A stretch of DNA of 64,000 nucleotides from an uncultured Verrucomicrobiae bacterium (GCA_963789335.1 CAWBKH010000005.1:273948-337947), one strand, 5' to 3'. Counted from the stretch's first letter, positions 13,754-36,734 are shown. Numbers and translations are program-made. Notes: generated by a model not told the origin, from the sequence alone.

Positions 13754-13783
13754 TCGCAAATCACAAATTAATTTTGAAATAAA

Positions 13784-20021: not shown

Positions 20022-20278
20022 GTGTTTGGACCCGAGGCCATTCTCCGAAGTGCTTGCACTGTTCTTTTCTTGGATTGTTATTTCAGTTTAGAAAGAGTCA
20101 GAAATGGCTGGTTAAGGGGTTGGCCGGTTCGATATCAGCACAAGCCTTGGACGAAACCATTGCTTACCATCTTCGGCTGACGTCACCGTTCCGGCCTTGC
20201 GCCAAAAAATCATTTAGTGAGGCTGCTACGAGTCTGAACCTTCGACCTCGTACTGTCACCAAAGGGATGGCGGCTGGG

Positions 20279-20410
20279 GTGCATCTTGACACTGTCCTTG
20301 TTTGAAGTTCCGCCTTCAGGCGGTTCGGGCGAAATCCCGCAATTTGCCGCGTAAACGCGGAACTCCAAACCTTGGCAACCCCTTCATTAAGGACAGTGTC
20401 AAGATGCACC
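20279..20410. repeat. Nested palindromic MITE/REP-like element
   Basis: Perfect 21-bp inverted repeat: gtgcatcttgacactgtcctt at 20279-20299 and its complement at 20390-20410. It encloses an inner 13/14 inverted repeat (gtttgaagttccgc / gcggaactccaaac) and small GC hairpins (ccgccTTCAggcgg, ccgcgTAAAcgcgg). Confidence 0.8.
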
Positions 20411-20773
20411 TTGGCGGCTGCTGGTGTGTAAATATTTCTTGCCTAGTTGCGCGATTGGTGATATTTTTCACTACATTAAGCCGGATGCAGTTGCGCTTCT
20501 AACTCGATTCCCGACGGATTCGGTGAACGGCGATAGAACTCCAAGGTTGATGAGGATGGCACTGGTTGTGGGTGGCTTGAGTGTTTGAGCGTTTGGATTG
20601 ATAAGCGGGAAACCCTTCCCCGTTGAGACGGGTTGGCGGGTAACGTCACGCTGCGTTGGTACGTATTTCAAATAGATCAGTTATGTCATGCTATTAATTG
20701 CCAGGTTTTCAGTGTGCATGCCCGGATTGAATTTACATCTGCAACACAATTAGTTTGTATCGCTAAATAAAAT

Positions 20774-23314
20774 ATGAACACCCATTGGAGAGTTTTAATC
20801 TTGGCTGCCGTGTGCATTAGGCTATGCGGCAATGTGACACAGGCTCAAGTAATCAACTTCGACGTGCCCGGCGGCGTTGCTGGTGCTGCAAATTATTCCG
20901 GTCAAGGCGCTTATTCTGATCCGGGCAATAATTATTGGAACCCGGTTGTGGGGAACGGCACTACCGGCGCTACACTCTTATCTGATGGGATCACTGCGAG
21001 TCCCATAACACTGACGTCCCAGATGGGTGGCACCTATGGCACTCAGGGAACGCAAGGCACTCCGGCGGCGTTGCAGCAACCCTACCAGTACAACAATGCT
21101 GTTCTCAGGACAGACACGCTTAATAATGTTCCCGCTGGCACCTATAACCTGTATCTTTATGGTATAAATAATACCGGCACGCGGGGAACAACCTTTACGG
21201 TATCCACTCCGTCGATGTCTCTCCTCAACCTGAGCACCAGCAACACACCAGCGAGTTTAACTACCTTCATATTGGGTGCTGATTATGTCATCTTCAGCAA
21301 TGTGGTCGTGGGGACAGCGGGGGCGATTACCTTTACTTGGACGGCCAACCCCAATGTGACTGTCTCGGGAAACAACGAAGGCGACTTCAACGCCCTTCAA
21401 CTCGTGTTCGTTTCAACCAACACAGTGGTCACCAATCAGTCTGGTCCGAATTTTGGTCCGAACGTTTACTTGTTCAGTCCTTCCACGCCGACAACCACCA
21501 TCCAGAATACTCTCAACACCCTTTTTGGACAACAGAACAATGTGAACTCGAGCCAATTCGACGCCAACCGGTACGCCGTTCTTTTTGAACCCGGAACGTA
21601 TAACGTGACCATTAACATGGGCTACTACATGCAAATACTCGGGTTGGGCCAATCGCCCGATGGTGTCACCATCAACGGGGGGCTGCAATGTTTCAATTTT
21701 GGCGGTCAGTCCACCCAAAATTTTTGGATGTCCGCTGAGAATATGGCCGTGAATCCCAGCGGGAGCAGCGGCACTATGACATGGTCCGTTTCGCAGGGCA
21801 CCTCCCTTCGCCGTATGCATATCGAAGGCAAATTGAACGTGTCAGATGGAACCTATTGTAGCGGCGGTTTCCTGGCCGATTCCAAGGTGGATTCCACAAT
21901 CAGCTCCATTTCCCAGCAACAATGGCTCTCCAGAAATGACATTTGGGCAAACTGGTCCGGTCAGGTATGGAACATGGTGTTTGTGGGCGTTTCCAATCCG
22001 CCTTCCGGAACCTGGCCCGGTTCCAAATACACGATCATCACCAACACACCATTGATCCGGGAAAAGCCCTATTTGTACGTTGATAGCAGCACCAATTTCT
22101 TCGTCATGGTGCCGAATCTTGAAACCAATAGTTTGGGGACCAGTTGGGCCAGCGGACCAACTCCCGGAGTTTCAGTCCCCATCAGCCAGTTCTATCTGGC
22201 GCAACCGGGCGTGGACAATGCCGGAACCATTAATGCCGCGCTGAGTTCGGGGATGGACCTGATATTAACCCCGGGGATTTATCATCTGACCAACAGCATT
22301 CTCGTGACGCAGCCGGATACGATTGTGATGGGGCTGGGATTCCCTACGCTGGTGCCTGCCAATGGAAATCCCGCCATGGTGATCTCGGATGTTGATGGCG
22401 TGAAGGTGTCAGATATTTTATTTGATGCCGGAACCACCGCCTCACCTGCATTGTTGGAAGTGGGGCCTCCGGGCAGTTCGCTGGATCATTCCGCGGACCC
22501 CATTTGTCTGTATGACGTTCACAGCCGGGTGGGTGGACAGTTCGCTGGCACCACCACCACCTGCTTCACGATTAATGCCAACAATGTCATCGGTGACAAC
22601 ATCTGGTTGTGGCGGGCGGATCATGGCACCGGCGTCGGCTGGACTCAGAATGCATCCAACAACGGCCTGGTGGTGAATGGCAATAACGTGACCATCTACG
22701 GTCTTTTCGTCGAGCATCACGAGCAGTATCAGACGTTGTGGAATGGCAATTGGGGACGGGTTTATTTTTACCAGTCCGAATTGCCCTATGACGCGCCGAA
22801 TCAGAGCGCCTGGACGCACAACGGCGTGAACGGTTATGCGTCCTACAAAGTTGCGGACGGCGTCACCAGCCATCAAGCCTATGGGCTTGGCATTTATGGT
22901 GTGTTCCAAACTTCAAACGTAAAATGCTTTAATACCATCGAGACGCCAACCAATCAGCAAGTCAACGTGCATGATATGATAAATGTTCTTATAGAAGCGC
23001 AGACCGGCAGCGAAATGACTCATATCATCAACGGCACTGGCGCAACGCTCACTACCGGTGGCCAGGCAACGGCCAACTATCTGTGGCAGAATCCGGCCTT
23101 TGCCATCAGCGCGGGTCTGGATAACACCGGAACGAACATCGCCATTACCTTGCCCACCGAGTCGTGGCATACTTATCAACTACAGTACAAGAACGCAGTG
23201 ACCGATCCAAGCTGGTCGAATCTTGGCAGTCCTTTCGGAGGGAACGACACGTTGGAGACAGTCACTGATTCAACTACGGCAACCAACCGGTTTTACCGTG
23301 TCATGGCCCGGTAA
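20774..23314 (+). CDS. Secreted right-handed beta-helix glycosidase-like protein with shared C-terminal domain
   Basis: Signal peptide. FGPNVYLFSPS...RYAVLFEPGTYNV...ILGLGQSPDGVTING...IWLWRADHG...LFVEHH pattern. From memory this matches a family often annotated 'coagulation factor 5/8 domain protein' or 'adenylyl cyclase' with a pectate-lyase-like fold. Tail ends NRFYRVMAR. Confidence 0.65.
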   Translation: MNTHWRVLILAAVCIRLCGNVTQAQVINFDVPGGVAGAANYSGQGAYSDPGNNYWNPVVGNGTTGATLLSDGITASPITLTSQMGGTYGTQGTQGTPAALQQPYQYNNAVLRTDTLNNVPAGTYNLYLYGINNTGTRGTTFTVSTPSMSLLNLSTSNTPASLTTFILGADYVIFSNVVVGTAGAITFTWTANPNVTVSGNNEGDFNALQLVFVSTNTVVTNQSGPNFGPNVYLFSPSTPTTTIQNTLNTLFGQQNNVNSSQFDANRYAVLFEPGTYNVTINMGYYMQILGLGQSPDGVTINGGLQCFNFGGQSTQNFWMSAENMAVNPSGSSGTMTWSVSQGTSLRRMHIEGKLNVSDGTYCSGGFLADSKVDSTISSISQQQWLSRNDIWANWSGQVWNMVFVGVSNPPSGTWPGSKYTIITNTPLIREKPYLYVDSSTNFFVMVPNLETNSLGTSWASGPTPGVSVPISQFYLAQPGVDNAGTINAALSSGMDLILTPGIYHLTNSILVTQPDTIVMGLGFPTLVPANGNPAMVISDVDGVKVSDILFDAGTTASPALLEVGPPGSSLDHSADPICLYDVHSRVGGQFAGTTTTCFTINANNVIGDNIWLWRADHGTGVGWTQNASNNGLVVNGNNVTIYGLFVEHHEQYQTLWNGNWGRVYFYQSELPYDAPNQSAWTHNGVNGYASYKVADGVTSHQAYGLGIYGVFQTSNVKCFNTIETPTNQQVNVHDMINVLIEAQTGSEMTHIINGTGATLTTGGQATANYLWQNPAFAISAGLDNTGTNIAITLPTESWHTYQLQYKNAVTDPSWSNLGSPFGGNDTLETVTDSTTATNRFYRVMAR

Positions 23315-23700
23315 TCGCCGCTCCCGGCCTTCGTCCAGCCGGGATGGTAAAGGAGAATATTCGGGCGATTGGCCGCTGTCTTTAATGGTCGGCAGGTCCG
23401 CTTGAGCCGGCTGTGGCTGATTGTTTCGTTGCATCAAAAGGCGGGGAATTTTGTTCCAAGACGTTGCAACGGAACGATTTTGAAATTGGCTGGAACAGCA
23501 AGAATACTCAATGTTCGTAATATTTTGGATTATTTCGGATAAATTTGTAAAAAAATGTTGACAAAAATTGAAAAAGATAACAAAGTGATGAATAAACATT
23601 CACATAGTGAAGGGTGCTTTAATGGCCCGTTGTGCCTTTTGTCAATTGAAATGTCAGTGTTGAATTGTCAAATATAACCGAAAACAAACATATTGGTGTT

Positions 23701-26700
23701 ATGAAAACCCCCGAAACGTTCCCTCAACCTCGAAAACACTCAGTACTGGCTTGGTTCAGCAAAGCCGGTGTGAGATTTATTGCGACCGCGTGCGCCGCCA
23801 TCGCGGTCTGCTTCGCTTTGACCAGCCACGCAACAAATATCCTGGTCAATCCAGGCTTTGACGCAATCCCAGGCTTTACTGGTTGGTCGGCGCACACCAC
23901 GGAAACTTGGAACATCGCCACTCACACCGATCAGTATATCAGTGCGCCCAATGATTTGTGGATGCAGGGTTTGTATGGAAACGGCGGCGCGAGTCTAAGT
24001 TCTTACGTTACGTATGCCTATCAGACTTTTTCCACTACGCCGGGTAATACCTATACTGCGGATGCTCATTTCTCGCAGTATGTTCTGTTTTTTGGCGTCG
24101 CCGGCACGCCAACCGAGGGTGGTGATGACCTAACTGCCAATACCAGCCCAACCGGCGCTAGCGGTCTGTTTGGTAACAATGACGCCACGAGTGGTTACTA
24201 CGAAGATGGATGGGTTGAAGTTGCGTTCTTGGATGCATCCAGCAATATCCTGGCGGATTACAGATCAATCATCATCAATCCGGCATTCGTGCAGAGTCTC
24301 ACGAACAACCCAAGCGATATAACCTCGCAGGTAGTACCCTCTGTCAATACCAATTACCCCCCCCCGGCAATGGTTACCAATGTTTATCTGAATTGGATGG
24401 ATGTTCAGGTGACCAACCAATACAAGCCGAGCACACTCGTGCCAAATACCGATCCTGATCCGCTGAACCCGTACTTTCCAGGAACGGCACAGATTACCAA
24501 TACTCTGGGAGCCGGTCAGGTCATGGTGGCCCCGGCTGGTGCGGTAAAAATAATATTCGCCCTGTGTGTATGTCAGACGAGCTACGCGTCGGGCGCGCCT
24601 CACTGGGATGATTGCAGCTTGAACCAGGTGAGCGGATTCCAGCCAGATGTGATCAGCGGAGTTACGCCCAGCAGCGGGGTGATGTTAACCAACACCAGCC
24701 TTACGTTCAATGTCCAGTCGCCTGTCGGAACCACCACCGCGACCAATGGCATAAAAGTGGTGGTAAATACAACCCCTGCTAATAGTACCGGTTTGCCGAC
24801 AGGTGGCGTTGACGAATCGAGCAGCCTCGTATTCTCTGGAAACAGCGCCAACTGGAACGTGACTTTGCCGGGATTTACCACCCCCAACAACGTTTATACC
24901 ATCAGCATCTCGGCCACCAACAGCGCCGGCTTGGTTGCCACGGCCAGCAGTCGGTTCGATACCTTCTCCCCCACCAACTTTGTTGTCGAGTGTGAAGACT
25001 ACGACTACAATGGCGGCCAATACATTCAGAATCCGATTCCCACCAACAACACCGCGGCAACCAGCTACTGGGGAAGGTCTGGCATACCAGGCACTGACTA
25101 TGACATCTTTTCCGGCGGAGTTGCGGGTGGTGGCAATAACTTACAGCCCAATTATCCCAACCGCGGCACAAATACCGATGCGGCTTGGCAGATACCGAAT
25201 GACCCTGAACTGCCACTATACGTTGCGCAAAGCAATAACGCCATTTATAATGTAACCATAGCCTACAACAATCCGGGTAATTGGTACGAATACACCCGGA
25301 ATTATCCAACCGGCAATTATATTATATATGCGCGCATGTCCGCGGGTAACGGTGCGGGTTCACAAGAATATCTCAATCGGTTGACCGGCGGGAATGGTAC
25401 CCCAACTCAGACGACCACCAATGTCGGGACGTTTCTCTTCAATAATAACGATTATACCTCCTATTATTGGGTGCCGCTACAGGACGCTAATGGCAATACG
25501 CTCATCGTGAGCTTGCCGGGCGGCCCGCAAACCCTCCAATTGGTCAGCGGCACCCCCACCGCCGGTTGCAACGTGAGTTACTTCATGTTCGCCCCGTTGC
25601 CGCCCAATGGATTGCCCCCGGATATAAAAAATCTAAACCCGGCGCTTAACACAGGTGGGAACGTATTTGTGACTACTAACAAATTAACCTTCACGGTCAG
25701 TTCTTACAACAATACAATTGCGACCAGCGATATCCACACGTATTTGAACGGCACGGATGTCTCGGCCTCAGAAACCTTCACGGGTTATAACACGAATTGG
25801 GCGGTGAGTGTTCCGCTGTCATTGCCCGCCAATCAGGTGAATCAGACCTTCGGCATAAGCGCCAAGGACTCCAAGGGAAATACCAACGGTGTTTCTGGGT
25901 CCTTTGACACCTTCAGTCAGAACAACTACATGATTGAAGCGGAGGACTTTGACTTCAACGGCGGCCAGTTTATTGACAACCCGTTTCCAACCGCGCCGCT
26001 TTATGTTGCCGTCAACAGTTATGGCGTTGCACCCGCGGGTAATCAGGCCAATCTTTCCGTGCTGGGCGTGGATGTGACCACTACCAACGTTACCACTGCC
26101 GAGACGTATCTTTACCGGATATATGATAACAATGTTGGCACAGAAGTGACCTCGGACTACCTCCGTTCGAAGTTTTATAATATTTCGGGCGGAAACGGAG
26201 AGCCGGCTAACACGACCAATAGCGACTATGACGTAGGATGGTGGCCGCCGGGGACGTGGCTGAATTATACCCGCACCTTCCCCACCGGTACTTATAATGT
26301 CTGGGGCCGGCTGGCTAGTGGCGGAGCCTATACTAATGCCACGCTGAGTTTGGTGACTACCGGGCAGCAGTTGGGCACGTTCGCTGATCCAAACGCCAAC
26401 GGGTTCCAAAACTGGCATTGGGTGGAGATGATGAGCAATGGCGCTCCGGCAGTAGTCACGCTCGGCGGCGTTGAGAAATTAAAGGTGACCGCTCCCCCAG
26501 GGAACGCCACAGGAAGCCTCAATGCGAACTTCTACATGTTTGTGGCGACCGTGCCCGCCCCGGTTCTGACGGTTTCCAGGACCGCAAGCACTCTCTCCAT
26601 CACGTTCGCCACTTACACTGGAAACACTTATATCGTCCAATGGACTGGCAGCTTGAGCGGCACGCCCACGTGGACGACGTTGACCACCATTTCTGGTGAC

Positions 26701-26775
26701 GGCTCTAACCATACCGCCACGGACACGGTGGGCGCATCACCGCGGTTTTACCGGGTGGAAGTAACAACCCCGTAA
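23701..26775 (+). CDS. Large secreted non-catalytic carbohydrate-binding-type protein (CBM4_9-like N-terminus; two Ig-like plus CBM6/35-like units; shared C-terminal domain)
   Basis: Signal peptide. NILVNPGFD start typical of CBM4_9-like modules. Duplicated FVVECEDYDYNGGQYIQNP / YMIEAEDFDFNGGQFIDNP modules. Tail ends PRFYRVEVTTP. No hydrolase motif seen. Confidence 0.65.
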   Translation: MKTPETFPQPRKHSVLAWFSKAGVRFIATACAAIAVCFALTSHATNILVNPGFDAIPGFTGWSAHTTETWNIATHTDQYISAPNDLWMQGLYGNGGASLSSYVTYAYQTFSTTPGNTYTADAHFSQYVLFFGVAGTPTEGGDDLTANTSPTGASGLFGNNDATSGYYEDGWVEVAFLDASSNILADYRSIIINPAFVQSLTNNPSDITSQVVPSVNTNYPPPAMVTNVYLNWMDVQVTNQYKPSTLVPNTDPDPLNPYFPGTAQITNTLGAGQVMVAPAGAVKIIFALCVCQTSYASGAPHWDDCSLNQVSGFQPDVISGVTPSSGVMLTNTSLTFNVQSPVGTTTATNGIKVVVNTTPANSTGLPTGGVDESSSLVFSGNSANWNVTLPGFTTPNNVYTISISATNSAGLVATASSRFDTFSPTNFVVECEDYDYNGGQYIQNPIPTNNTAATSYWGRSGIPGTDYDIFSGGVAGGGNNLQPNYPNRGTNTDAAWQIPNDPELPLYVAQSNNAIYNVTIAYNNPGNWYEYTRNYPTGNYIIYARMSAGNGAGSQEYLNRLTGGNGTPTQTTTNVGTFLFNNNDYTSYYWVPLQDANGNTLIVSLPGGPQTLQLVSGTPTAGCNVSYFMFAPLPPNGLPPDIKNLNPALNTGGNVFVTTNKLTFTVSSYNNTIATSDIHTYLNGTDVSASETFTGYNTNWAVSVPLSLPANQVNQTFGISAKDSKGNTNGVSGSFDTFSQNNYMIEAEDFDFNGGQFIDNPFPTAPLYVAVNSYGVAPAGNQANLSVLGVDVTTTNVTTAETYLYRIYDNNVGTEVTSDYLRSKFYNISGGNGEPANTTNSDYDVGWWPPGTWLNYTRTFPTGTYNVWGRLASGGAYTNATLSLVTTGQQLGTFADPNANGFQNWHWVEMMSNGAPAVVTLGGVEKLKVTAPPGNATGSLNANFYMFVATVPAPVLTVSRTASTLSITFATYTGNTYIVQWTGSLSGTPTWTTLTTISGDGSNHTATDTVGASPRFYRVEVTTP

Positions 26776-26818
26776 GGGGACTGCTGGAATGTGAAGTGAT
26801 TTGAGAAAACAACCGGGT

Positions 26819-26843
26819 CGGCACCGAAGTAAAATCGGTGCCG
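26819..26843 (+). terminator. Hairpin after the binding-protein gene
   Basis: cggcaccga-agtaaaa-tcggtgccg, a 9-bp stem. No clear T-run. Confidence 0.3.
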
Positions 26844-26913
26844 GCCTGTTGGCCGGGTAAAAAGTTAATAAGAATAAGTTGAAAATTGAGCCGTTAATTG
26901 TAGATTTCAAGTA

Positions 26914-27852
26914 ATGAAGACAAATGAGCCAAAAATGAAGGCCGCTTTCCGACGTAATATGCAAGGCGATTGCGACGTGGAACAGAAACAAAGATTTCGT
27001 TCAGCCGGCTTTACCTTGATCGAGTTGCTGGTGGTGATAGCCATTATTGCCATCCTGGCGGCGATGCTGTTGCCGGCTCTGGCCAAGGCCAAACAAAAGG
27101 CCCAGACCATGCAATGCCTGTCCAATGAGAAGCAGTTGTCGCTGGCGTGGTTGATGTATGCCAGCGACAATAGCGACTATCTGGTGGGGAACCGGGGCCT
27201 TGACGGTCAGCCCCCTAATCTGAACGAAAACCCCCTGACCGACGTCAATCTCCAACCCGGAGGGATATATGCTCAATGGTGTCCCGGCAACATACAGATA
27301 TTGGGATGTGACATTAATCAAGACAAATGGATTGAGGCGGGGATGCTCTATCCCTATCTCAAGAGTCTTCTGGTTTACCACTGCCCGGCCGACAAGACGG
27401 TGGTTCCCCGTTCGGCGGCCGCGTTTGCGCAAAAACCCGCTCTGCGCACCTATTCATTGAATTGCTGGGTGGGTTCCGTGAATAATAATGGTGCTGCTCA
27501 AGCTTGGAATGGGATTCAAAACTACATCGTTTATACGAAGCTCGCGAATATGGTCAACCCCGGCCCCAGCAAGACTTTTGTTTTTATCGAGGAAAATCCT
27601 GCCAGCATTGACGACGGCTATTTTGCCGTGGATCCAACCAATCCGAACGAGTGGTATAACAGTCCGGCGTGTTTGCATGGCAATTCCAGTGTGCTGGCGT
27701 ATGCCGATGGACATGCGCAGGCGCGCCTGTGGACGGACAATAACATGATCCACGATGTGAATCCACAAATTCCACCCGGAGACAATGTTCCGGCTACCGC
27801 CGGCAATCAGGATTTGCCTTGGTTGATTTCAGTTACCACAGCTCATAAATAG
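26914..27852 (+). CDS. Prepilin-type N-terminal cleavage/methylation protein of the H-X9-DG class (DUF1559-like)
   Basis: G|[24 protein letters not shown] pilin leader and helix. C-terminal [13 protein letters not shown] is an exact H-X9-DG. Confidence 0.85.
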
Positions 27853-28135
27853 GCAAAATTCAGTCCACAGATTTTTTAGCTTCCAGGTTTATGATGTTTG
27901 TGGGTGATTTTGTTTGTACTGGAAGCTGTGGAATCGGTTCGGCTAGGGACCTGGCATTCTGCCGGTCGGTAGTTGGGGGCGGGATGAAAATGGTCAGCGT
28001 CCGTGGACTAAACACCCGGTGTGATTTGCAGATAACAAACCCGCGTTCCTTTGCAGAGGCTTCCGCGCCGTTTTATTTCCCTGAGCAGTCACCAACACGA
28101 TAACCAGTCCCGTTTAAATTCAATCCATAATTGTT

Positions 28136-29170
28136 ATGTTTCACAGACCTTGTTTATCTTCCGCTGGTCAGACCAAATGCGTGTCGCGACTGCTTGTTGT
28201 CCTGTCCGGTTTTACTATCCCAATGTTGTTGTGCCAGGTCGCGCTGGCCGACACGAACATCGTCTGGAGCGACGAATTCAATGGCACATCTGTAGATTTG
28301 ACCAAATGGACATTTGAAACCGGCAACAATAACGGCTGGGGTAATGGCGAGCTTGAGTATTATACCGCCCGCACAAACAACGCTTATGTCAGTAATGGTG
28401 TGCTGCACATCGTGGCGCAACAGGAATCCTACGGCGGTTACAGTTTTACTTCCGCTCGCATGAAGACCCAGAACCACTACAATACACCTGTGTACGGTCA
28501 ATTTGAATGGCGCGCCAGACTGCCCTCCGGCGTCGGCATGTGGCCGGCGCTCTGGCTGTTGGGGTCGGATTACCCATCGGTTGGCTGGCCTGCCTGTGGG
28601 GAGATTGATGTTGTGGAAAATAACGGAGCTTCTCCGACATGGGTGCAGGGAAGCCTGCATTGGGGAACCAGCGGTGAAGTCAGCAGAACGGCCACGTACT
28701 ATTTTACCAGCCCGGACTCAGTTACCAACTGGCACACTTATGATTTGATTTGGAGGCTCGGTTCATTCCAGTATTTTGTGGATGGCAATCTTTATCAAAC
28801 CCAAACCGGTTTGACTTCGCCTTTCAACGCGCCATTCTTTTTCATAATGAACCTGGCGGTGGGGGGCCAGTATGTTGGCAGTCCTAGCGTCGGTACAATC
28901 GAGGCTGGCACCTCTTTTCCGCAGGAGGTGCAGGTGGATTATGTGCGGGTTTATGAAGATACCGCGCCCATGGTGATTTCATTTGCGCCGCAGCCGGATG
29001 GAAGTTTGCAATTGAGCTGGCCGACCAATATCGTCTGCCATTTGCAGGCGCAGACCAATTCCGTGGTTGGCGGCAACTGGACTGATGTTGCCGGTGGCGC
29101 CGCCAGTCCGTATGTTGTAATTCCCGATCCCAATCAGAGTGCCGTCTATTACCGTCTGGAATCGCCTTAA
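28136..29170 (+). CDS. GH16 beta-1,3(-1,4)-glucanase-like enzyme with shared C-terminal domain
   Basis: WSDEFNG...WGNGELEYYT...GEIDVVE catalytic motif. Signal peptide. Tail ends AVYYRLESP. Confidence 0.85.
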   Translation: MFHRPCLSSAGQTKCVSRLLVVLSGFTIPMLLCQVALADTNIVWSDEFNGTSVDLTKWTFETGNNNGWGNGELEYYTARTNNAYVSNGVLHIVAQQESYGGYSFTSARMKTQNHYNTPVYGQFEWRARLPSGVGMWPALWLLGSDYPSVGWPACGEIDVVENNGASPTWVQGSLHWGTSGEVSRTATYYFTSPDSVTNWHTYDLIWRLGSFQYFVDGNLYQTQTGLTSPFNAPFFFIMNLAVGGQYVGSPSVGTIEAGTSFPQEVQVDYVRVYEDTAPMVISFAPQPDGSLQLSWPTNIVCHLQAQTNSVVGGNWTDVAGGAASPYVVIPDPNQSAVYYRLESP

Positions 29171-29273
29171 AGCAGCGACCGGGACGTATTTGCCCTTAAT
29201 AAATTCCAGCCCCACGCCAGGAAGTACCTTGCGCGAGGGATGGAAATTTGTATTTTGGGAAGCGTAGCCAATT

Positions 29274-30728
29274 ATGATATACCGACTTATTTCCACCATT
29301 ATGCTGGGCCTGTTCATGGGCGCAACTGCGCCGGCTGAAGAGGCGGGAGCGACTCAAACCCGGGCTGCCGATTTTGCCACGAGGCCGGTTGTCGTTTACG
29401 TAACTGCCAAAGCCACGGGACAGCGGCTTGCCCGGACTGGTGAACTGCATTTTATTGATTTGCCGCAACCCACCGAAAAGCAACAGTGTGTTTTCGTGGA
29501 TCCGTCCAAGAAATTTCAGACGGTGCTTGGCATTGGCGGCGCTTTGACGGATGCCGCGGCAGAGACTTTTTACAAGCTTCCGAAGGAAAAACAGGAACAG
29601 ATTCTAAAGGCGTATTACGATGTGCGGGACGGCATTGGCTATACATTGGGACGCACCTCCATCAACAGTTGCGATTTCTCCAGCGAGAGCTACACCTATG
29701 TCACCAACGACGACGCGACCCTGGCCAGTTTCAACATCAGTCACGATTTGAAATATCGCATCCCGTTCATCAAGGAGGTGCTGGCGACCGCCGGCCGGAA
29801 AAACTTCACCTTGTTTGCCAGCCCGTGGAGTCCTCCGGCTTGGATGAAGGATAACGACGACATGTTGCATGGAGGCTCCTTGAAGCCCGAGTTTTACGAC
29901 GCCTGGGCCAGGTATTACGTCAAGTTCATCAAAGCCTACCAGCAGGCGGGCGTTCCGATCTGGGGGGTGACGGTGCAAAATGAACCGATGGCGGTGCAAC
30001 CGTGGGAATCCTGTGTTTACACGGCCGGGGAGGAACGTGATTTCGTAAAGAATTACCTTGGACCTATCATGGCCAAAAGCGGCCTCAAAGATAAAAAAAT
30101 CCTGATTTGGGATCACAACCGAAGCATGATGTATCAAAGGGCCGAAGTGGTTCTGGATGATCCCAATGCGGCGCAATACGTGTGGGGCGTGGCCTTTCAT
30201 TGGTACGTGGGCGATCACTTCGAGAACGTGAAACGTGTTCAGGAGGCCTTTCCCAAAACTCACTTGTTGTTCACCGAAGGTTGCAATGGTCCCTTTGACC
30301 AGGCGCAGATCCATGACTGGCAGTGGGGTGAAATCTATGGCAGATCCATGATCCACGATTTCAACAATGGCGCCGTTGGCTGGACGGACTGGAACGTGTT
30401 GCTGGACCAGGAGGGCGGGCCGAATCATGTTCAAAATTATTGTTTCGCCCCGATTATCGCCGACACCAAGACGGGGGAACTGACTTACATGAACGCCTAC
30501 TATTACCTCGGCCATTTTTCCAAATTTGTTCGTCCGGGTGCGCGGCGCATTATCAGTTCTTCAACCGTTGACGGCCTGTTGACGACTGCGTTTGAAAACA
30601 AGAATGGGCGGATTGCGGTAGTTGTCATGAATTCATCAGATACCGAACAGCCGTTTTTTCTGTGGCTGAACGGCAAAGCCGCAAAAACCAGCAGCCCTCC
30701 GCACTCCATCATGACCTTGGTCATCTAA
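29274..30728 (+). CDS. GH30 family glycosidase (glucosylceramidase / beta-1,6-glucanase-like)
   Basis: GIGGALTDAAA, ASPWSPPAWMK, WGVTVQNEP (acid/base Glu) and LFTEGC (nucleophile Glu). Confidence 0.85.
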   Translation: MIYRLISTIMLGLFMGATAPAEEAGATQTRAADFATRPVVVYVTAKATGQRLARTGELHFIDLPQPTEKQQCVFVDPSKKFQTVLGIGGALTDAAAETFYKLPKEKQEQILKAYYDVRDGIGYTLGRTSINSCDFSSESYTYVTNDDATLASFNISHDLKYRIPFIKEVLATAGRKNFTLFASPWSPPAWMKDNDDMLHGGSLKPEFYDAWARYYVKFIKAYQQAGVPIWGVTVQNEPMAVQPWESCVYTAGEERDFVKNYLGPIMAKSGLKDKKILIWDHNRSMMYQRAEVVLDDPNAAQYVWGVAFHWYVGDHFENVKRVQEAFPKTHLLFTEGCNGPFDQAQIHDWQWGEIYGRSMIHDFNNGAVGWTDWNVLLDQEGGPNHVQNYCFAPIIADTKTGELTYMNAYYYLGHFSKFVRPGARRIISSSTVDGLLTTAFENKNGRIAVVVMNSSDTEQPFFLWLNGKAAKTSSPPHSIMTLVI

Positions 30729-30775
30729 ACCCATATTAAGTGATGCGAGTTGATGTTGAGAATGTTTGCGCCACC

Positions 30776-31636
30776 ATGAAAACAGCCTGGCAACAAACCG
30801 TGTTGACTCAGATTAAACGATTGCGTTCCTTGACTGGCACCGCGATGACCGTATTGGGATTGCTCGGCGGTGGAACGCTCACGGCCTGCGGCGGCTGGAC
30901 GCTCGTATGGAGCGACGAGTTTAACGGCGCCGCGGTTGACACGAATCATTGGAGGTTTGAGACAGGAAATCATCACGGCTGGGGCAACCACGAACTCGAG
31001 TATTACACCGGACGTTCCGAAAATGCCTACGTCAGCAACGGGTTGCTCCACATTGTGGCCCGAAGGGAATCAACCAACGGGTTTTCCTACACCTCGGCCC
31101 GGATGAAAACCGAGGGATTCTTTGCCAAAAAGTATGGGCGGTTTGAGTTCCGCGCCAAACTTCCCGCGGGTCAGGGCTTTTGGCCGGCCATCTGGCTGAT
31201 GCCCGAAAACTCCCATTATGGTCGCTGGCCGAACTCTGGTGAAATTGATATCGTGGAAAACAGAGGCTCCCATCCCGGACAAGAAGGAGGAACCATTCAT
31301 TTTAGCGGCCCCGATGGGAATCACGTTTACCATGGAAAGACCTACCACTTTCCAAGCGGGGAATCGGTCACGGGTTTTCACATCTATGACCTGATTTGGT
31401 CAACCAATTCAATCCAGTGGTTCGTGGATGGCAAGCTTTACGAAACGCAGTCCCACTGGTCCACGGCGAGAGCTCCCTATCCTGCGCCTTTTGACCAACC
31501 TTTCTATATCATCATGAATCTGGCCGTTGGCGGGGACTACGGAGGTGATCCGGACCAGCACACGGTTTTCCCCGGCGAAATGGATGTGGATTACATTCGT
31601 GTCTATGACCACGTCGCGCCCGATTCAGTTCGGTGA
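30776..31636 (+). CDS. GH16 glucanase-like lipoprotein
   Basis: Lipobox-like LTAC; WSDEFNG...WGNHELEYYT...GEIDIVE. Start set at ATG 30776 (the track ORF starts at 30740). Confidence 0.85.
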   Translation: MKTAWQQTVLTQIKRLRSLTGTAMTVLGLLGGGTLTACGGWTLVWSDEFNGAAVDTNHWRFETGNHHGWGNHELEYYTGRSENAYVSNGLLHIVARRESTNGFSYTSARMKTEGFFAKKYGRFEFRAKLPAGQGFWPAIWLMPENSHYGRWPNSGEIDIVENRGSHPGQEGGTIHFSGPDGNHVYHGKTYHFPSGESVTGFHIYDLIWSTNSIQWFVDGKLYETQSHWSTARAPYPAPFDQPFYIIMNLAVGGDYGGDPDQHTVFPGEMDVDYIRVYDHVAPDSVR

Positions 31637-31870
31637 TTTGAAGTCGCTTCTGGATCGCAACCGAACGCAAATCCTCCCGAATTGGATCGGTCGCTTTGGA
31701 AAATTATTTTCAAAACATGAAGAGCATCTGGCTAAATCAAATAGCCTTTTGATTATACTCAAGATAATTGTTTATCTTCAAGCTTCCTGTGCCACCGGCT
31801 GCGTCTGTCGCCGCGCGGGAAATATTAGAAACCCGATTTGTGTGCTATTTTTCTTTACATTTATTCCGTT

Positions 31871-31890
31871 GTGTGATTGAATAGTCACAC
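31871..31890. promoter_or_regulatory. Palindrome GTGTGA-N8-TCACAC upstream of the GH3 gene
   Basis: gtgtgattgaatagtcacac, about 85 nt before ATG 31975, in an AT-rich leader. Candidate operator; no regulator gene is seen nearby. Confidence 0.25.
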
Positions 31891-31974
31891 ACTGGAAAGA
31901 ATCCGCCCTATGGGGCTAAATCTTCTTATGAAATTATGAAAAATTGTCTAGCAGAACGCCGGTCGGTTGATTTT

Positions 31975-34900
31975 ATGCATCGTCTTCGCCCTTGGATTCC
32001 GCTGAACGTCATTGTCGCGGTTTGTTTCGTCGGGTTTTTTTGCGCCATGCCACTCCATCTCCAAGCGCAGGCTTGGACGAACACAACCCTTTCAGCGAGC
32101 CAGCGCGCCACTCTGTTGCTTGCCCAAATGACTTTCAGTGAGAAAGCGGCCATGGTTTACGGCACGGCAGGCCCGACTGGTAGTAACTATGTGGGCAACA
32201 TTGCCAACAACACCCGGCTCGGCATTCCCTGGTTGTTTTTGAACGACGGACCTGCCGGACTTCGTCTTTCAGACACCAGCACCACAGCCTTTCCCGCGCC
32301 CATTGACATCGCGGCGAGTTGGGACACGGCGCTGGCGCGGCAATACGGCAGCCAAATAGGCGCCCAATGCCGCGGCAAAGGCGTTGAAGTTCTATTGGGG
32401 CCGATGATGAACATGGCGCGGGTGTATGAGGACGGGCGGGCTTTTGAAGGCTACGGCGAAGATCCATACCTTTCGGGGGCGATGGCGGCGGCGGAAATTC
32501 CCGGCATCCAAAGCCAGGGCGTCATCGCCACGGCAAAACATTTTGTGTGCAATGATCAGGAGATCAACCGCACAACGATCAGCGCCGACGTGGACCCACG
32601 CACCCTCCAGGAAATCTATGAGGTGCCATTTCGCGCCTCCGTGCGGGCCGGGGTTGGCGCGGTCATGGCCTCTTACAATCTGGTGAATAGCGTTCATGCG
32701 TGCGAGTTGCCGGCGCTCAATACCGACTTGAAAAAGGAGTATGGATTCAAGGGCTGGATCATGAGCGATTGGGGGGCGGCTTTCACCACCGTGGGTGGCA
32801 TGAATAATGGCCTCGATATGGATATGTATAGTGGCCCATTTGCAGCCAATAACATCACCACCGCCATTCAATCGGGCAATGTTCCGGCTTCGGAATTGGA
32901 CGGCATGGTGCTGCGGATTCTCACCACCATGTTTCAATTCGGTTTCTTCGACAATCCTCCCACCGGAAATCTAAATTCGACGGTGACGAGTTCGGCCAAT
33001 AATCTGTTTGCGCGCAGCGCCGCTGCGGAGGGAATGGTCTTGTTGCAAAACAATGGCGGCGTGCTGCCGCTGAATTCATCGTTGCATTCAATTGCCGTAA
33101 TTGGTTCCGTGGCGAGCGCGAATGCGTTTTCAGTGGGCGCCGGTTCCGCGAGCGTGAACCTGCCTTACAACATCACGCCACTGGCGGGAATCACCAGCCG
33201 CGCGGGAGGCGGCGTCACCATCAATTACGCCCAGGGTGACGGCGCCAGCCTCGCCGCCGCAGTCCAGGCAGCCAGCAATTCCGCCGTCGCGATCGTATGT
33301 GTTGGCCAGCAAACCAGCGAAGGTTCCGATCGCTCCAGTCTTTCATTGCCCAACGGCCAGGATGCGCTCATCAGTGCCGTGGCCGCTGTGAACACCAACA
33401 CGATTGTCGTTATGTACGAGTCCTCCGCCACGTTGATGCCTTGGGCCAATCAGGTTGCGGGAATTGTGATGGCGTGGTATCCGGGGCAGGAAAATGGCAA
33501 CGCTCTGGCGCAGGTCCTGTTCGGGGACATTAACCCTTCAGGAAAACTGCCGGTAAGCATTCCTCCCTCTGCAAGCCAGGTGCCCACGAGCACCACCGCC
33601 CAATGGCCTGGCATCAACCTGCACGCGGCTTACTCCGAAGGGCTGGAAATCGGTTATCGCTGGTATGACGCGAACAACGTGACTCCGTTGTTCCCGTTTG
33701 GTTTCGGTTTGTCCTACACGACGTTCGGTTACAGCAACCTCACTGTCAGCGCCGTCAGTCCTTCGGGGCAGGTGCAAATCGGCTTCGATCTGACCAACAC
33801 GGGCAATCTCACCGGCGCTGAAGTGCCCCAGCTCTATCTGGGCTTTCCCGCCGCCGCCGGTGAGCCGCCGAAATTGCTCAAAGGCTTTCAAAAAATCTCC
33901 TTGTCGCCGGGTCAGACACAGCACGTCACGTTCAATCTGGATTGGGAAGATCTGGCCGATTGGGACGCCACCGCGCGCGGCTGGATTGTGACGCCGGGCA
34001 GTTTTCAAGTGATGGTCGGCGCTTCCTCGCGGGACATCCGTTTGACCGGGGCGTTCACGGTTGCGTCGGTGCCTTCCAGTGATCTGGCAAACGCGGCGCT
34101 CCAACAACCGGTCACCGTTTCCTCCACGCTTTCCACGAACACTCCGGGTGCGGCCGCCGTGGACGGAGATCCCACCTCAGCTTGGACCTCGCTGGCCAGC
34201 GACCCACAATGGATTAAGGTGGATCTCGGTTTAATTAAAGACCTGTTCCGGGTCCGGCTGCATTGGAACACCAATTATGCGAGCAGCTACAACATTCAAA
34301 TTTCGCCAGACGGAACCAATTGGACGACGCTGTTCACGACCAACAATGACACGGGCGGCACGGAGGACATTCTGGTTTCGGGCCGTGGCCGGTACGTGCA
34401 GATTAACGGAACGCAGCAAGGTTTGCCGGGCGCGGGTTATTCGCTGTCGGAGTTGGAAGTTTATTCGCAGCCGCAAGAGCCTTTTGGGGGGACCGTTCCC
34501 ACCATGTCGGGAGGCACGAACATCATCCAGGCGGAGAACTACGATACGGGCGGCGAGAGTGTGGCCTACTATAACACCACGGTAGGCAATCCGGGCGGGG
34601 TTTACCGGTCGGATGACGTGGGGATTGAACCCACCTCGGACACGGGCGGCGGCTACGATGTGAACTCGCTCAACACCGGCGAATGGCTGGAATACACGGT
34701 CAACCTGCCGTATCCCACGGCCAACTACACCATCAGCCTCCGTGTGGCGGCACCTGCGGCCGGCGGTCAACTGCGGGTGCGGCTCAACGGCACCGTGCTG
34801 GGCACGGTCGCCATTCCCAACACAGGTGGCGCTCAAAGCTGGCAGACGGTCACCTTGCCGACGGTTTCCCTGACGGGTAACATCGGGAGTCAGGCACTGC

Positions 34901-36171
34901 GGTTGGAAGTGATTACTAATGGATTTAGTATCAACTGGATTGGCTTGAGTACGCCGATGCCTACGGTTCCGGCCGCCCCAACGGGATTGACAGCAGGCAC
35001 CGGCACCGCGGCAGTTTATCTGAGTTGGAACGCTTCCGCCGGTGCAACCGCTTACAATGTAAAACGCGCGCTGGTCAGCGGTGGACCATACACTACCATC
35101 GCCAGTTCCACCGCGAACAGCTACGTTGACCCCGCCGTTTCCACTTGCTCCAGTTACTACTATGTGGTTTCAGCCACGAACTCTCTTGGCGAAAGCCCCA
35201 ACTCGAGTGAGGCAGCCGCGACACTGGGCGCCTTTGCATTGGCCGTGAACTCGGGTGGCAGCGCGGCGAACCAGTTCATCACGGACGGATATTATTCGGG
35301 CGGCACCGCCGCCTCGACCACGGCGGCAATCGACACCAGCGCCGTGACCTCTCCCGCACCCCAGGCGGTTTATCAAACCGAACGCTACGGCAACTTCACC
35401 TACACTTTCACCAACTTGACGCAGGGCGTGAACTACCTGGTGCGCCTTCACTTTGCAGAAATTTATTGGACTGGCACAAACGATCGGATCTTCAACGTTT
35501 TCATCAACGGCAATGAAGTCCTGACGAACTTTGACGTTTTCGCCGTGTCCGGCGGCGAGGACATTGCGAACATCCAACAGTTTATGGTGGCTCCTAACAC
35601 CACGAATGCGATTGTCATCCAGTACGTCACCGTCAAGGACAACGCCAAATCCAGCGGCATCGAAATCCTCCTCCCGCCGCCGGCCGCGGCGGTGGGTTTG
35701 ACGGCGACCGCAAGCAACTCGCTGGTGGCCTTGAGTTGGAACACCGTAAGCGGAGCCACCAGCTACAACGTGGAACGCTCGGGGGTCAGCGGTGGGCCGT
35801 ACACCCTGTTGTTCAGCAGACTGACCGTTACCAACTACACTGATTCCGTGGTGACGAATGGGACGACATATTACTATGTGGTTTTGGCGGTCAATAACGG
35901 CTGTGCTGGCCCCAACTCCCTCCAGGTTAGTGCCACGCCCAATCGGCTAATCGTGCCTGCCCTCTATGGCGCTTCCATCACCAACGGCCAGTTTGGATTT
36001 TGGATCAACACCAATAGTACAGGGACGAACTACACGCTCATGGCTTCCACCAATTTGACTTCCTGGATTCCAATATTCACATCCAATTTGCCGTTGTTGC
36101 CATTCTTTTGGGTGGATACCAATTCCCCGGCCTATCCGGTTCGTTTCTACCGTACCGTCCTGGGGCCATGA
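31975..36171 (+). CDS. Multidomain GH3 beta-glucosidase: GH3 N+C, discoidin (F5/8 type C), CBM6-like, Fn3, malectin-like, Fn3, shared C-terminal domain
   Basis: KGWIMSDWGA nucleophile region. AAVDGDPTSAWTS...YSLSELEVY (discoidin). IQAENYDTGGESVAYYN (CBM6-like). YQTERYGNFTYTF...HFAEIYW (malectin-like). Tail ends VRFYRTVLGP. Confidence 0.85.
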   Translation: MHRLRPWIPLNVIVAVCFVGFFCAMPLHLQAQAWTNTTLSASQRATLLLAQMTFSEKAAMVYGTAGPTGSNYVGNIANNTRLGIPWLFLNDGPAGLRLSDTSTTAFPAPIDIAASWDTALARQYGSQIGAQCRGKGVEVLLGPMMNMARVYEDGRAFEGYGEDPYLSGAMAAAEIPGIQSQGVIATAKHFVCNDQEINRTTISADVDPRTLQEIYEVPFRASVRAGVGAVMASYNLVNSVHACELPALNTDLKKEYGFKGWIMSDWGAAFTTVGGMNNGLDMDMYSGPFAANNITTAIQSGNVPASELDGMVLRILTTMFQFGFFDNPPTGNLNSTVTSSANNLFARSAAAEGMVLLQNNGGVLPLNSSLHSIAVIGSVASANAFSVGAGSASVNLPYNITPLAGITSRAGGGVTINYAQGDGASLAAAVQAASNSAVAIVCVGQQTSEGSDRSSLSLPNGQDALISAVAAVNTNTIVVMYESSATLMPWANQVAGIVMAWYPGQENGNALAQVLFGDINPSGKLPVSIPPSASQVPTSTTAQWPGINLHAAYSEGLEIGYRWYDANNVTPLFPFGFGLSYTTFGYSNLTVSAVSPSGQVQIGFDLTNTGNLTGAEVPQLYLGFPAAAGEPPKLLKGFQKISLSPGQTQHVTFNLDWEDLADWDATARGWIVTPGSFQVMVGASSRDIRLTGAFTVASVPSSDLANAALQQPVTVSSTLSTNTPGAAAVDGDPTSAWTSLASDPQWIKVDLGLIKDLFRVRLHWNTNYASSYNIQISPDGTNWTTLFTTNNDTGGTEDILVSGRGRYVQINGTQQGLPGAGYSLSELEVYSQPQEPFGGTVPTMSGGTNIIQAENYDTGGESVAYYNTTVGNPGGVYRSDDVGIEPTSDTGGGYDVNSLNTGEWLEYTVNLPYPTANYTISLRVAAPAAGGQLRVRLNGTVLGTVAIPNTGGAQSWQTVTLPTVSLTGNIGSQALRLEVITNGFSINWIGLSTPMPTVPAAPTGLTAGTGTAAVYLSWNASAGATAYNVKRALVSGGPYTTIASSTANSYVDPAVSTCSSYYYVVSATNSLGESPNSSEAAATLGAFALAVNSGGSAANQFITDGYYSGGTAASTTAAIDTSAVTSPAPQAVYQTERYGNFTYTFTNLTQGVNYLVRLHFAEIYWTGTNDRIFNVFINGNEVLTNFDVFAVSGGEDIANIQQFMVAPNTTNAIVIQYVTVKDNAKSSGIEILLPPPAAAVGLTATASNSLVALSWNTVSGATSYNVERSGVSGGPYTLLFSRLTVTNYTDSVVTNGTTYYYVVLAVNNGCAGPNSLQVSATPNRLIVPALYGASITNGQFGFWINTNSTGTNYTLMASTNLTSWIPIFTSNLPLLPFFWVDTNSPAYPVRFYRTVLGP

Positions 36172-36255
36172 CCATCTGAGGGCTTTGGCACGCCAGCCAT
36201 GAAACCGGATTGACCGAAAAATAGTGGCTGGCGTCTTGCTTGTTGGTCGGATTGG

Positions 36256-36534
36256 ATGCCAGATGTTTCCTCCAAATATTCGCTCTACGAATTTGAAGTT
36301 TATCCCGCCCTCGCGCCGTCGCTGTCCATCGCCCTCAGCGGGACAAACGTCGTCATTACCTGGCCGACGTCGGCGACCAGTTGGCCGCTACAGACAGCGC
36401 CAGTGTTGGGATTGCCCGGCAACTGGAACAACCTGACGACCGCTCCCTTGTTCCTGAATTCAGCTTACGTTGTCACCAATTCGGTCGGTTCTACGGAGCA
36501 ATGTTACCGCTTCGAACAGAACCCCTGGAGATGA
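36256..36534 (+). pseudogene. Orphan 3' remnant: end of a discoidin domain plus the shared C-terminal domain
   Basis: YSLYEFEVY (compare YSLSELEVY in the GH3) followed by ...VVITWPTSATSWPLQ...EQCYRFEQNP. No signal peptide or catalytic part upstream. Confidence 0.5.
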
Positions 36535-36678: not shown

Positions 36679-36734
36679 AATGGACGTGGCCAAACTCCCG
36701 ACCCGCTGCGGCTGAGTAGCAATTGCCAGATATT

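Follow-up and report, generated by a model that had tools for sequence, protein, structure and literature searches.

A predicted beta-1,3-glucan digestion cluster of a Verrucomicrobiae bacterium contains a recurrent gene pair for a putative CBM6-bearing protein and an H-X9-DG prepilin-type protein

A 64-kb stretch of DNA from an uncultured Verrucomicrobiae bacterium (the window, by which we mean the whole stretch) carries seven + strand genes at positions 20774-36171. These genes, g1 to g7, encode in order a GH55 enzyme (GH, glycoside hydrolase family), the multi-domain protein g2, an H-X9-DG prepilin-type protein, a GH16 enzyme, a GH30 enzyme, a GH16 lipoprotein and a GH3 enzyme. We consider it probable that the cluster degrades beta-1,3(/1,6)-glucan outside the cytoplasm and that g2, together with the dedicated pseudopilin g3, forms a surface glycan-binding module. 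The binding protein and the pseudopilin were listed separately in the original prediction for this DNA, and we read them as one conserved two-gene cassette. The enzyme content of the locus is ordinary. What is new here is the g2 family with its candidate CBM6-like modules (CBM, carbohydrate-binding module), its recurrent H-X9-DG pseudopilin partner, and the fast evolution that both share. A search of the literature on DUF1559, H-X9-DG and prepilins with carbohydrate-active enzymes (CAZymes) found no description of such a cassette. The seven genes are as follows.

20774-23314, + strand: g1, GH55 exo-beta-1,3-glucanase of 846 aa with a signal peptide (phmmer against PDB)
23701-26775, + strand: g2, secreted multi-domain protein of 1,024 aa (ATG start at 23701)
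26914-27852, + strand: g3, prepilin-type (class III signal) H-X9-DG protein (N_methyl, E=9.5e-9)
28136-29170, + strand: g4, laminarinase-like GH16 endo-beta-1,3-glucanase that carries a signal peptide and ends in a 'YYRL' domain (Pfam GH16, E=2.7e-17)
29274-30728, + strand: g5, GH30 enzyme (GH30_1-like) that has a signal peptide but lacks a C-terminal tail domain (PF02055, E=9e-81; PF17189, GH30C, E=4e-15)
30740-31636, + strand: g6, GH16 endo-beta-1,3-glucanase, probable lipoprotein with lipobox LTAC (Pfam GH16, E=3e-22)
31936-36171, + strand: g7, GH3 beta-glucosidase of 1,411 aa with a C-terminal 'RFYRT' domain (Pfam)

The evidence for the cassette comes from related loci. Relatives of g2 were fetched from one-genome-per-species collections, giving 334 stretches, of which 77 loci were kept. 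Open reading frames (ORFs) in these loci were called heuristically, and the loci share ancestry, so that counts overstate independence. Among the g2-type genes having room for a downstream neighbor, a prepilin-motif gene follows on the same strand, 46-422 nt downstream, in 47 of 68 cases, against ~0.6 expected at a background motif density of 0.009 per 800-nt window. A further 7-8 relatives of g2 have a pilin-like gene just upstream, and overall ~80% of the g2 relatives in the 77 loci adjoin a prepilin-type gene. The pairing is kept down to ~30% identity, beside GH16, GH30, GH3, GH55 and GH5 genes, and among paralogues of a single genome, as in the four loci of the metagenome-assembled genome (MAG) SPRUCE 435. 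Within the entire 64-kb window there is one prepilin motif, and it lies directly after g2.

The two genes also diverge together. Across the relatives, the pairwise identities of g2 and g3 co-vary (r=0.52; none of 500 permutations was as high). A close comparison is possible with locus L080, a Joint Genome Institute (JGI) metagenome contig. Synteny in relatives, which the original prediction had raised, is clear in this contig, as it carries GH55, g2, g3, GH30, GH16 and GH3 in the order seen in the window (6 of the 7 genes, with only g4 missing). Between the two loci the g2-g3 stretch (23523-27844 in the window, 3290-7679 in L080) is 72% identical at the DNA level, whereas the flanking enzyme genes are ~88% identical. 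The nonsynonymous divergence (dN) is 0.25-0.28 for g2 and g3 versus 0.05-0.09 for the enzymes, which is 3-5 times faster at the protein level, while the synonymous divergence (dS) is comparable (0.51-0.61 versus 0.24-0.44). No other part of the locus evolves as fast as the cassette, which is what one would expect of proteins that are exposed at the surface and interact. The gene g4 (28136-29170), present in the window and not in L080, is placed directly after the cassette.

Protein g2 was originally described as a 1,036-aa binding protein. The ORF exists (23665-26775 when read from a TTG codon), but the length is probably overstated, as the ATG at 23701 and a product of 1,024 aa are likelier, in agreement with the gene call of the sequence collection itself. 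The predicted layout is a signal peptide, an orphan N-terminal beta domain (residues ~42-318), an Ig-like domain, a CBM6-like module (~422-634), a second Ig-like domain, a second CBM6-like module (~738-950) and a C-terminal 'RFYRV' domain. The Ig-like domain and the ~210-aa module following it are present in two copies, reflecting an internal duplication. Searches with full-length g2 gave no match in Pfam, NCBIfam or the PDB sequences. When a profile of the repeated module was compared with PDB, the best matches were 1W9S (E=0.003), the beta-1,3-glucan-binding CBM6 of Bacillus halodurans; 5FUI (E=0.006), the CBM6 of a Zobellia GH16 laminarinase; and 1UXZ (E=0.12). The same module aligns with the CBM6/35 of g7 (hhalign, 96.7% probability, E=4e-10). 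The two modules of g2 are therefore candidates for divergent CBM6-like domains. Foldseek searches with an AlphaFold2 model of g2 returned generic tandem beta-sandwich proteins only (a xanthanase CBM region, adhesins and Sas6, with TM about 0.1), which fits the predicted architecture but is not diagnostic.

The g2 family is large. We retrieved more than 190 near-full-length matches, all named 'hypothetical', and among 1.84 billion representative sequences the family comprises 536 clusters at E<=1e-30 and 1,362 at E<=1e-10. Many paralogues share only the common region (residues ~300-1021) and have a different N-terminus. GH16 genes are present in 16 of the 30 loci with the N-domain type found in the window, and in 5 of the 47 without it (Fisher p=6.5e-5; the loci are not phylogenetically independent). 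This co-occurrence suggests that the N-domain is the substrate-specific part of g2. A possible identity of the N-domain as CBM4/9 was rejected, as an hhalign comparison with the neighboring PEP-CTERM CBM4_9 protein aligned only the first ~20 residues (NxLVNPGF) at a probability of 10%.

Protein g3 carries a G|FTLIE motif at residue 32 with Glu+5, a long hydrophobic N-terminal helix and the H-X9-DG motif at residue 255, and both motifs are invariant in the family alignment. The helix is followed by a globular domain of ~250 aa with invariant acidic, His and Cys residues. The match to Pfam DUF1559 is weak (19.6 bits against a cut-off of 23.3) and covers profile positions 2-43 only. The protein was also compared with the type II secretion major pseudopilin GspG, and this assignment was ruled out: the score against the equivalog model TIGR01710 is 41.4 bits versus a cut-off of 88.85, and the alignment is confined to the N-terminal helix (profile positions 2-68). 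It is established for type II secretion and type IV pilus systems that a pilin-type protein can present or export a large adhesin or other cargo. In our reading, g3 would be processed by a prepilin peptidase and, acting through type II secretion or type IV pilus-like machinery, would export g2, anchor it at the cell surface, or both. We propose that g2 would be the glycan-binding component, holding beta-1,3-glucan through its two CBM6-like modules and through the N-domain that tracks GH16 genes. The pair would then capture substrate, as SusD and surface glycan-binding proteins do in Bacteroidota.

The related loci inform on the host and on control. All come from MAGs, with records mostly assigned to Verrucomicrobiia, Limisphaerales, Pedosphaera or subdivision 3 and largely derived from soil and peat projects. 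Based on the origin of these loci, the host of the window is probably a subdivision-3 (Limisphaerales/Pedosphaerales-type) Verrucomicrobium. In the more distant loci L004, L006, L007, L022, L037 and L081 the same genes are rearranged: GH30 and two GH16 genes are found with a 972-aa pectate-lyase-fold/SGL protein and the PEP-CTERM CBM4_9 protein on the opposite strand, together with a protein combining TPR and GDSL domains; a block of g2, g3, GH3 and GH16; and genes for a sensor kinase (PAS/HisKA_3) and a response regulator of the LuxR type. Counting homologues no more than 10 kb away from a g2 relative, 52 of 79 loci have the HisKA_3 kinase and 35 of 79 the LuxR regulator. In these relatives, control would be exerted by the adjacent kinase and regulator. 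Neither has a tblastn match in the window and both are also absent from L080; the window and L080 would therefore be regulated from elsewhere. In the kinases beside g2 relatives (e.g., L006:19165-22451), ~500 aa without any Pfam domain precede the PAS/HisKA_3 part; this N-terminal region is presumably a periplasmic glycan sensor.

Transporters are rare beside g2 relatives, with a major facilitator superfamily (MFS) sugar transporter in 4 loci, and no TonB-dependent receptor or SusD family recurs across the 77 loci. In the window, a Pfam scan of ORFs of at least 150 aa over the 64 kb found no TonB-dependent receptor or plug, SusD, ABC or MFS importer, secretion machinery or locus-associated regulator. 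The original prediction had reported this lack of a TonB-dependent transporter, SusD, sensor and importer, and our scan agrees. It had also treated the missing SusC/D as a puzzle, which it is not: Verrucomicrobiota have already been reported to lack SusCD, with the uptake route an open question (PMC8857213, PMC11980603), and since the closest relatives are all Verrucomicrobiia MAGs the absence is expected. Capture and control, earlier called unexplained, are now answered in part by the HisKA_3 and LuxR genes of relatives, the export signals described below and the g2-g3 cassette.

Several observations weigh against a surface module made of g2 and g3. The window holds no gene for type II secretion or pilus machinery among its scanned ORFs, so that g3 is tied to such machinery by family membership only, and it holds no transporter or regulator either. 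The adjacency and co-variation of g2 and g3 are partly phylogenetic inertia, and in ~20% of cases a g2 relative lacks a pilin-like neighbor. Three more genome pairs show the same ranking of evolutionary rates, but dS there is near saturation, so that the dN/dS ratios are rough. The likeness of g2 to CBM6 is distant (E=0.003-0.006 in PDB), and the Pfam CBM_6 match is not significant for g2 itself and reaches E=0.022 in 1 of 28 family members. The g2 model, all-beta and multidomain, is of moderate confidence (pLDDT 62), and for the N-terminal domain of ~280 aa no relative was detected in Pfam, NCBIfam, the PDB sequences or by hhalign. An AlphaFold2 model of g3, likewise moderate (pLDDT 62), left the globular domain unmatched at E<=0.001 when compared with PDB using Foldseek. 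We infer the role of the pair from sequence.

The lack of machinery, transporter and regulator in the scanned window and the g2 relatives without a partner would also fit a plain cluster of secreted enzymes, in which g2 is another secreted CBM protein and g3 a redundant H-X9-DG paralogue present by accident. The size of the g3 family points the same way: at least 8,000 homologues are found in the collection, under JGI names for prepilin-type or H-X9-DG proteins, and Verrucomicrobiota genomes hold tens of such genes (67 in Verruconatronum alginivorum). We nevertheless think it unlikely that g3 is a bystander. Same-strand adjacency exceeds chance ~80-fold (47 versus ~0.6); the pairing is kept across deep divergence, varied enzyme neighborhoods and paralogous copies; the two proteins co-diverge, both with raised dN; and the sole prepilin motif of the window directly follows g2.

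A different placement of g3 is also conceivable, namely as a periplasmic oligosaccharide binder anchored in the inner membrane and feeding a transporter or the HisKA_3 sensor, with g2 acting independently at the surface. Unassembled pseudopilins of type II secretion do sit in the inner membrane, the kinase and regulator co-localize with g2-g3 loci, the ~250-aa globular domain could bind a ligand through its invariant acidic, His and Cys residues, and the related DUF1559 is named SBP_bac_10 in Pfam. The probability that we give to this placement is low. The partner of g3 is g2 and not the kinase, and the window and L080 keep the pair with neither kinase nor regulator. The DUF1559 match is weak and limited to profile positions 2-43, the g3 model has no structural match to binding proteins, and the high rate at which g2 and g3 evolve together is better explained if both are exposed and interact.

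The substrate is indicated by the enzymes, in which every catalytic motif is intact. The original description of g1 as a beta-helix hydrolase can be sharpened to a GH55 exo-beta-1,3-glucanase, as residues 223-758 match SacteLam55A of Streptomyces sp. SirexAA-E (PDB 4PEW/4PEX; phmmer, E=8e-145). The catalytic double beta-helix aligns end to end, and the Gln, Ser, Glu and Glu aligned to Q174, S198, E480 and E502 are kept (VSQG, CSGG, FVEH and FYQSE; the offset, chain index + 44, was inferred from the construct length). To our knowledge, beta-1,3-glucanase is the sole activity of family GH55. Neither NCBIfam nor the Pfam copy used matched g1; for Pfam this is due to the age of the library, because the local Pfam-A has no GH55 model and PF27525 (LAM55_pectate-like), with which the L080 orthologue is annotated, is newer. 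Unlike SacteLam55A, g1 has a C-terminal ~70-aa 'RFYRV' domain and an extra Asn/Thr/Gly-rich N-terminal domain of ~200 aa (residues ~25-222, 20846-21440). The N-terminal domain is also absent from the 644-aa L080 orthologue, and this part of the gene does not align with L080 DNA. It may be an uncharacterized binding module gained through domain fusion.

For the two GH16 enzymes, the top PDB matches are all laminarinases or endo-1,3-beta-glucanases. The best are 3AZX (5e-54) and 2HYK (2e-53) for g4 and 3AZX (1e-63) for g6, and both proteins carry the ExDxxE catalytic motif (EIDVVE at residue 156 of g4, EIDIVE at residue 168 of g6). In Pfam, the GH3 enzyme g7 combines GH3 N- and C-domains with Fn3-like, F5/8 type C, CBM6/CBM35 and malectin domains and a weak fn3 match. 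Among PDB entries it is closest to beta-glucosidases (3ZYZ, 4e-126), and it has an SDW nucleophile motif at residue 277.

The GH30 enzyme g5 has an NEP acid/base motif at residue 236. Its subfamily was judged from PDB and NCBIfam matches, and these do not bear out the GH30_3 endo-beta-1,6-glucanase of the BT3312 type that the original prediction implied: g5 reaches 264 bits with NF053856, for which the cut-off is 700, and SrfJ (9e-87) and human glucocerebrosidase (GBA, 7e-81) are closer in PDB than the BT3312 endo-1,6-beta-glucanase homologue 5NGK (6e-56). The GH30_1 enzymes of marine laminarin polysaccharide utilization loci (PULs) are beta-1,6-glucosidases (PMC13188888). Because of this and the closer likeness to GH30_1-type enzymes, g5 is more likely an exo-acting beta-1,6-glucosidase (debrancher) or a beta-glucosidase than an endo-1,6-glucanase.

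It is very unlikely that the substrate is instead a mixed-linkage beta-1,3;1,4-glucan or of the glycolipid/glucosylceramide type, even though GH16 enzymes can be lichenases, the best NCBIfam models of both GH16s are for endo-1,3-1,4-beta-glycanases (though far below cut-off) and the nearest solved relatives of the GH30, which resembles glucosylceramidases, are SrfJ and human glucocerebrosidase, since g1 conserves the active site of a family known only for beta-1,3-glucanase activity, both GH16s are nearest to solved laminarinases, the CBM6-like modules of g2 are nearest to beta-1,3-glucan-binding CBM6s, and the GH30_1 enzymes of laminarin PULs are beta-1,6-glucosidases.

The best reading is that the enzymes form a coherent set that would convert beta-1,3(/1,6)-glucan to glucose outside the cytoplasm. 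The original prediction of a beta-1,3;1,6-glucan toolkit is strengthened by the GH55, the laminarinase-like GH16s and the beta-glucosidase-like GH3, with the GH30 type corrected, and we predict that the locus is a real digestion cluster for beta-1,3-glucan, either laminarin or fungal-wall glucan. Export signals, identified by eye from the N-termini, are present on all seven products (Sec-type on g1, g2, g4, g5 and g7, the LTAC lipobox on g6 and the prepilin signal on g3), and it is because of these that we place the breakdown outside the cytoplasm. All seven proteins would be exported, and the polymer would be cut there to glucose or short oligosaccharides. The GH55 and GH16 enzymes, perhaps with the GH3, would act on polymer held at the surface, and the GH30 and the lipoprotein GH16 on oligosaccharides. 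Glucose would be imported through a general sugar transporter encoded elsewhere. Since glucose or oligosaccharides would be made outside the cytoplasm, such a transporter would suffice and no importer would be needed in the locus.

The layout of the locus is largely as originally predicted. All seven same-strand ORFs were found, Pfam agrees with the GH16, GH30, GH16 and GH3 assignments and with the discoidin (F5/8 type C), CBM6-like (CBM6/CBM35) and malectin-like modules of the GH3, the pseudopilin-like nature of g3 is supported by the N_methyl match and the H-X9-DG motif, and the lipobox of the GH16 lipoprotein is readable in g6. The end of the locus had been put at 36534, whereas the stop codon of the GH3 gene is 363 nt earlier, at 36171. 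A block of lower GC content was also proposed. This holds, modestly, for 20774-31935 (GC 0.518, compared with 0.554 in the remaining window) and not for the GH3 gene (0.579). At third codon positions, GC is 0.59-0.65 in the block versus 0.64-0.77 in the comparison. The intergenic leaders are AT-rich, as noted earlier, with GC of 0.41-0.50. Recent horizontal acquisition is not favored, as the GC gap is small (0.518 versus 0.554), the GH3 gene is outside the dip and the locus is syntenic in relatives. Scans for promoters and terminators gave counts at or below shuffle expectation, a comparison of the intergenic leaders found no common operator-like motif, and an Rfam scan of the window gave zero matches.

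Several proteins of the locus share a C-terminal, beta-rich domain of ~70 aa that ends in (R)[FY][FY]R[VLT]x0-10. It is encoded at 23075-23311 (g1), 26545-26772 (g2), 28955-29167 (g4) and 35935-36168 (g7), all on the + strand, and is not found on the GH30, the lipoprotein GH16 or g3. The same domain is present, at 46964-47185, on an unrelated subtilase (46961-48604, - strand). Many ORFs of the related loci (L003-L079) have such an ending, 120 of 945 versus 1.7 expected by chance. The domain is absent from Pfam and NCBIfam, and a profile search of a large protein collection returned short unnamed fragments only. It looks like a lineage-wide sorting or anchoring tag, with a position like that of the C-terminal domains of the type IX secretion system.

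A bolder version of the surface-module reading can be formulated, which we regard as speculative and rather doubtful. In it, the cassette would be the subdivision 3 counterpart of the SusC/D pair: a short pseudopilus or pilus-like fibre, with the locus-specific pilin as its building block or its tip, would carry the multi-CBM g2 and would capture, and possibly reel in, polysaccharide; the paralogous cassettes within a genome would each be tuned to one glycan by swaps of the N-domain; and the 'FYRV' tag would route or dock g2 and many of the enzymes to this one surface apparatus.

Compared with the laminarin and beta-glucan PULs of Bacteroidota, which combine SusC/SusD with GH16_3, GH17, GH30_1, GH3 and surface glycan-binding proteins bearing laminarin-binding CBMs, the locus has in common an endo-beta-1,3-glucanase, a GH30_1-like probable debrancher and a GH3 beta-glucosidase encoded on one strand, a putative non-catalytic multi-CBM binding protein and, in relatives of the window, an adjacent sensor and regulator. 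It differs in having neither a SusC-like TonB-dependent transporter nor SusD, in having GH55 where PULs have GH17, in pairing the binding protein with a prepilin-type protein and not with an outer-membrane transporter, and in the regulators of its relatives, which are HisKA_3 and LuxR proteins and not a hybrid two-component system or SusR. The locus would thus resemble a laminarin PUL in its working, but it is outside the SusC/D PUL class, whose defining SusC/SusD feature it lacks.

The locus belongs to the recognized SusCD-less CAZyme clusters of bacteria of the Planctomycetota-Verrucomicrobiota-Chlamydiota (PVC) group. As in Lentimonas and other marine Verrucomicrobiota, Thalassobacterium and Verruconatronum alginivorum, enzymes are clustered without SusCD and uptake is open (PMC8857213, PMC11980603). 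The alginate operon of V. alginivorum includes a PulG-like pseudopilin gene, as the polysaccharide locus here includes g3; that gene is beside those for secreted hypothetical proteins, its product is among the most strongly alginate-induced proteins, and the genome has 67 paralogues (PMC13274419). The reports of SusCD-less clusters treat the pseudopilin as a generic part of type II secretion and describe no conserved partner protein. The locus in the window differs in the g2 partner with its two CBM6-like modules and the tight cassette, in coming from another order (soil and peat subdivision 3), and in its predicted substrate, beta-glucan and not alginate or fucoidan.

With the GspG-K pseudopilins and the minor pilin-adhesin complexes of type IV pili (PilY1; the pilin-like cellulose-binding proteins of Fibrobacter and Ruminococcus), g3 shares the class III signal, G|FTLIE, Glu+5 and the long hydrophobic helix. 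It is, however, the equivalog of no Gsp or Pil pilin, it has a much larger globular domain with H-X9-DG, it is encoded beside its putative cargo and not in a secretion or pilus operon, and its family has tens of paralogues per genome.

The surroundings of the locus consist of housekeeping genes (chorismate synthase, trpA, clpP/clpX) and several TPR proteins. TPR-repeat proteins are unusually dense around the locus (16416-17282, 18624-20021, 36723-38525, 39288-41096 and 42945-45281). Two further genes have counterparts in related loci:

42031-42682, - strand: PEP-CTERM protein, CBM4_9/LamG-like, with an apparent frameshift (the L006 orthologue matches in two frames by tblastn)
42945-45281, + strand: TPR and GDSL/SGNH-hydrolase protein (Pfam TPR and Lipase_GDSL_2)

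The first has Pfam matches to CBM_4_9, Laminin_G_3 and PEP-CTERM on its 3' piece, and the change of frame is visible in the translation; the split gene is either a pseudogene or the product of an assembly indel. Its orthologue is found between the GH16 genes and g2 in L004, L006, L007, L022 and L081, and because of this synteny with g2 in the closest relatives it is possibly an accessory part of the locus. The second is 67% identical to L006:7194-9698 and belongs to a family found in 21 of the loci fetched with g2. It is possibly an accessory esterase or a scaffold.

A near-perfect hairpin of 146 nt (20272-20417), single-copy in the window, lies ~360 nt upstream of the GH55 start. Its arms of 22 nt (20278-20299 and 20389-20410) are 100% complementary, a second stem is nested, and the minimum free energy is -85.5 kcal/mol (z=-10). 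The hairpin has no Rfam match and is outside the region that aligns with the upstream part of the L080 locus. It may be an insertion resembling a miniature inverted-repeat transposable element or a repetitive extragenic palindromic sequence, or a structured RNA. Further upstream, the gene at 12389-13759 (- strand), whose 456-aa product ends in an Mrr-type restriction endonuclease domain, lies in the kilobase of lowest GC in the window (0.468), between trpA and a mannose-1-phosphate guanylyltransferase-like gene. This may be a small inserted defense gene.

Verrucomicrobiota are abundant polysaccharide degraders of soils, peat and oceans. For this lineage, the g2-g3 cassette gives a recurrent, experimentally tractable module and a possible genomic marker for PUL-like loci, and it offers a first clue to what the very large H-X9-DG/DUF1559 family does in PVC bacteria. 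If the cassette is indeed a counterpart of the SusC/D pair, it could predict PULs in PVC bacteria and would be a concrete molecular candidate for polymer uptake without SusCD.

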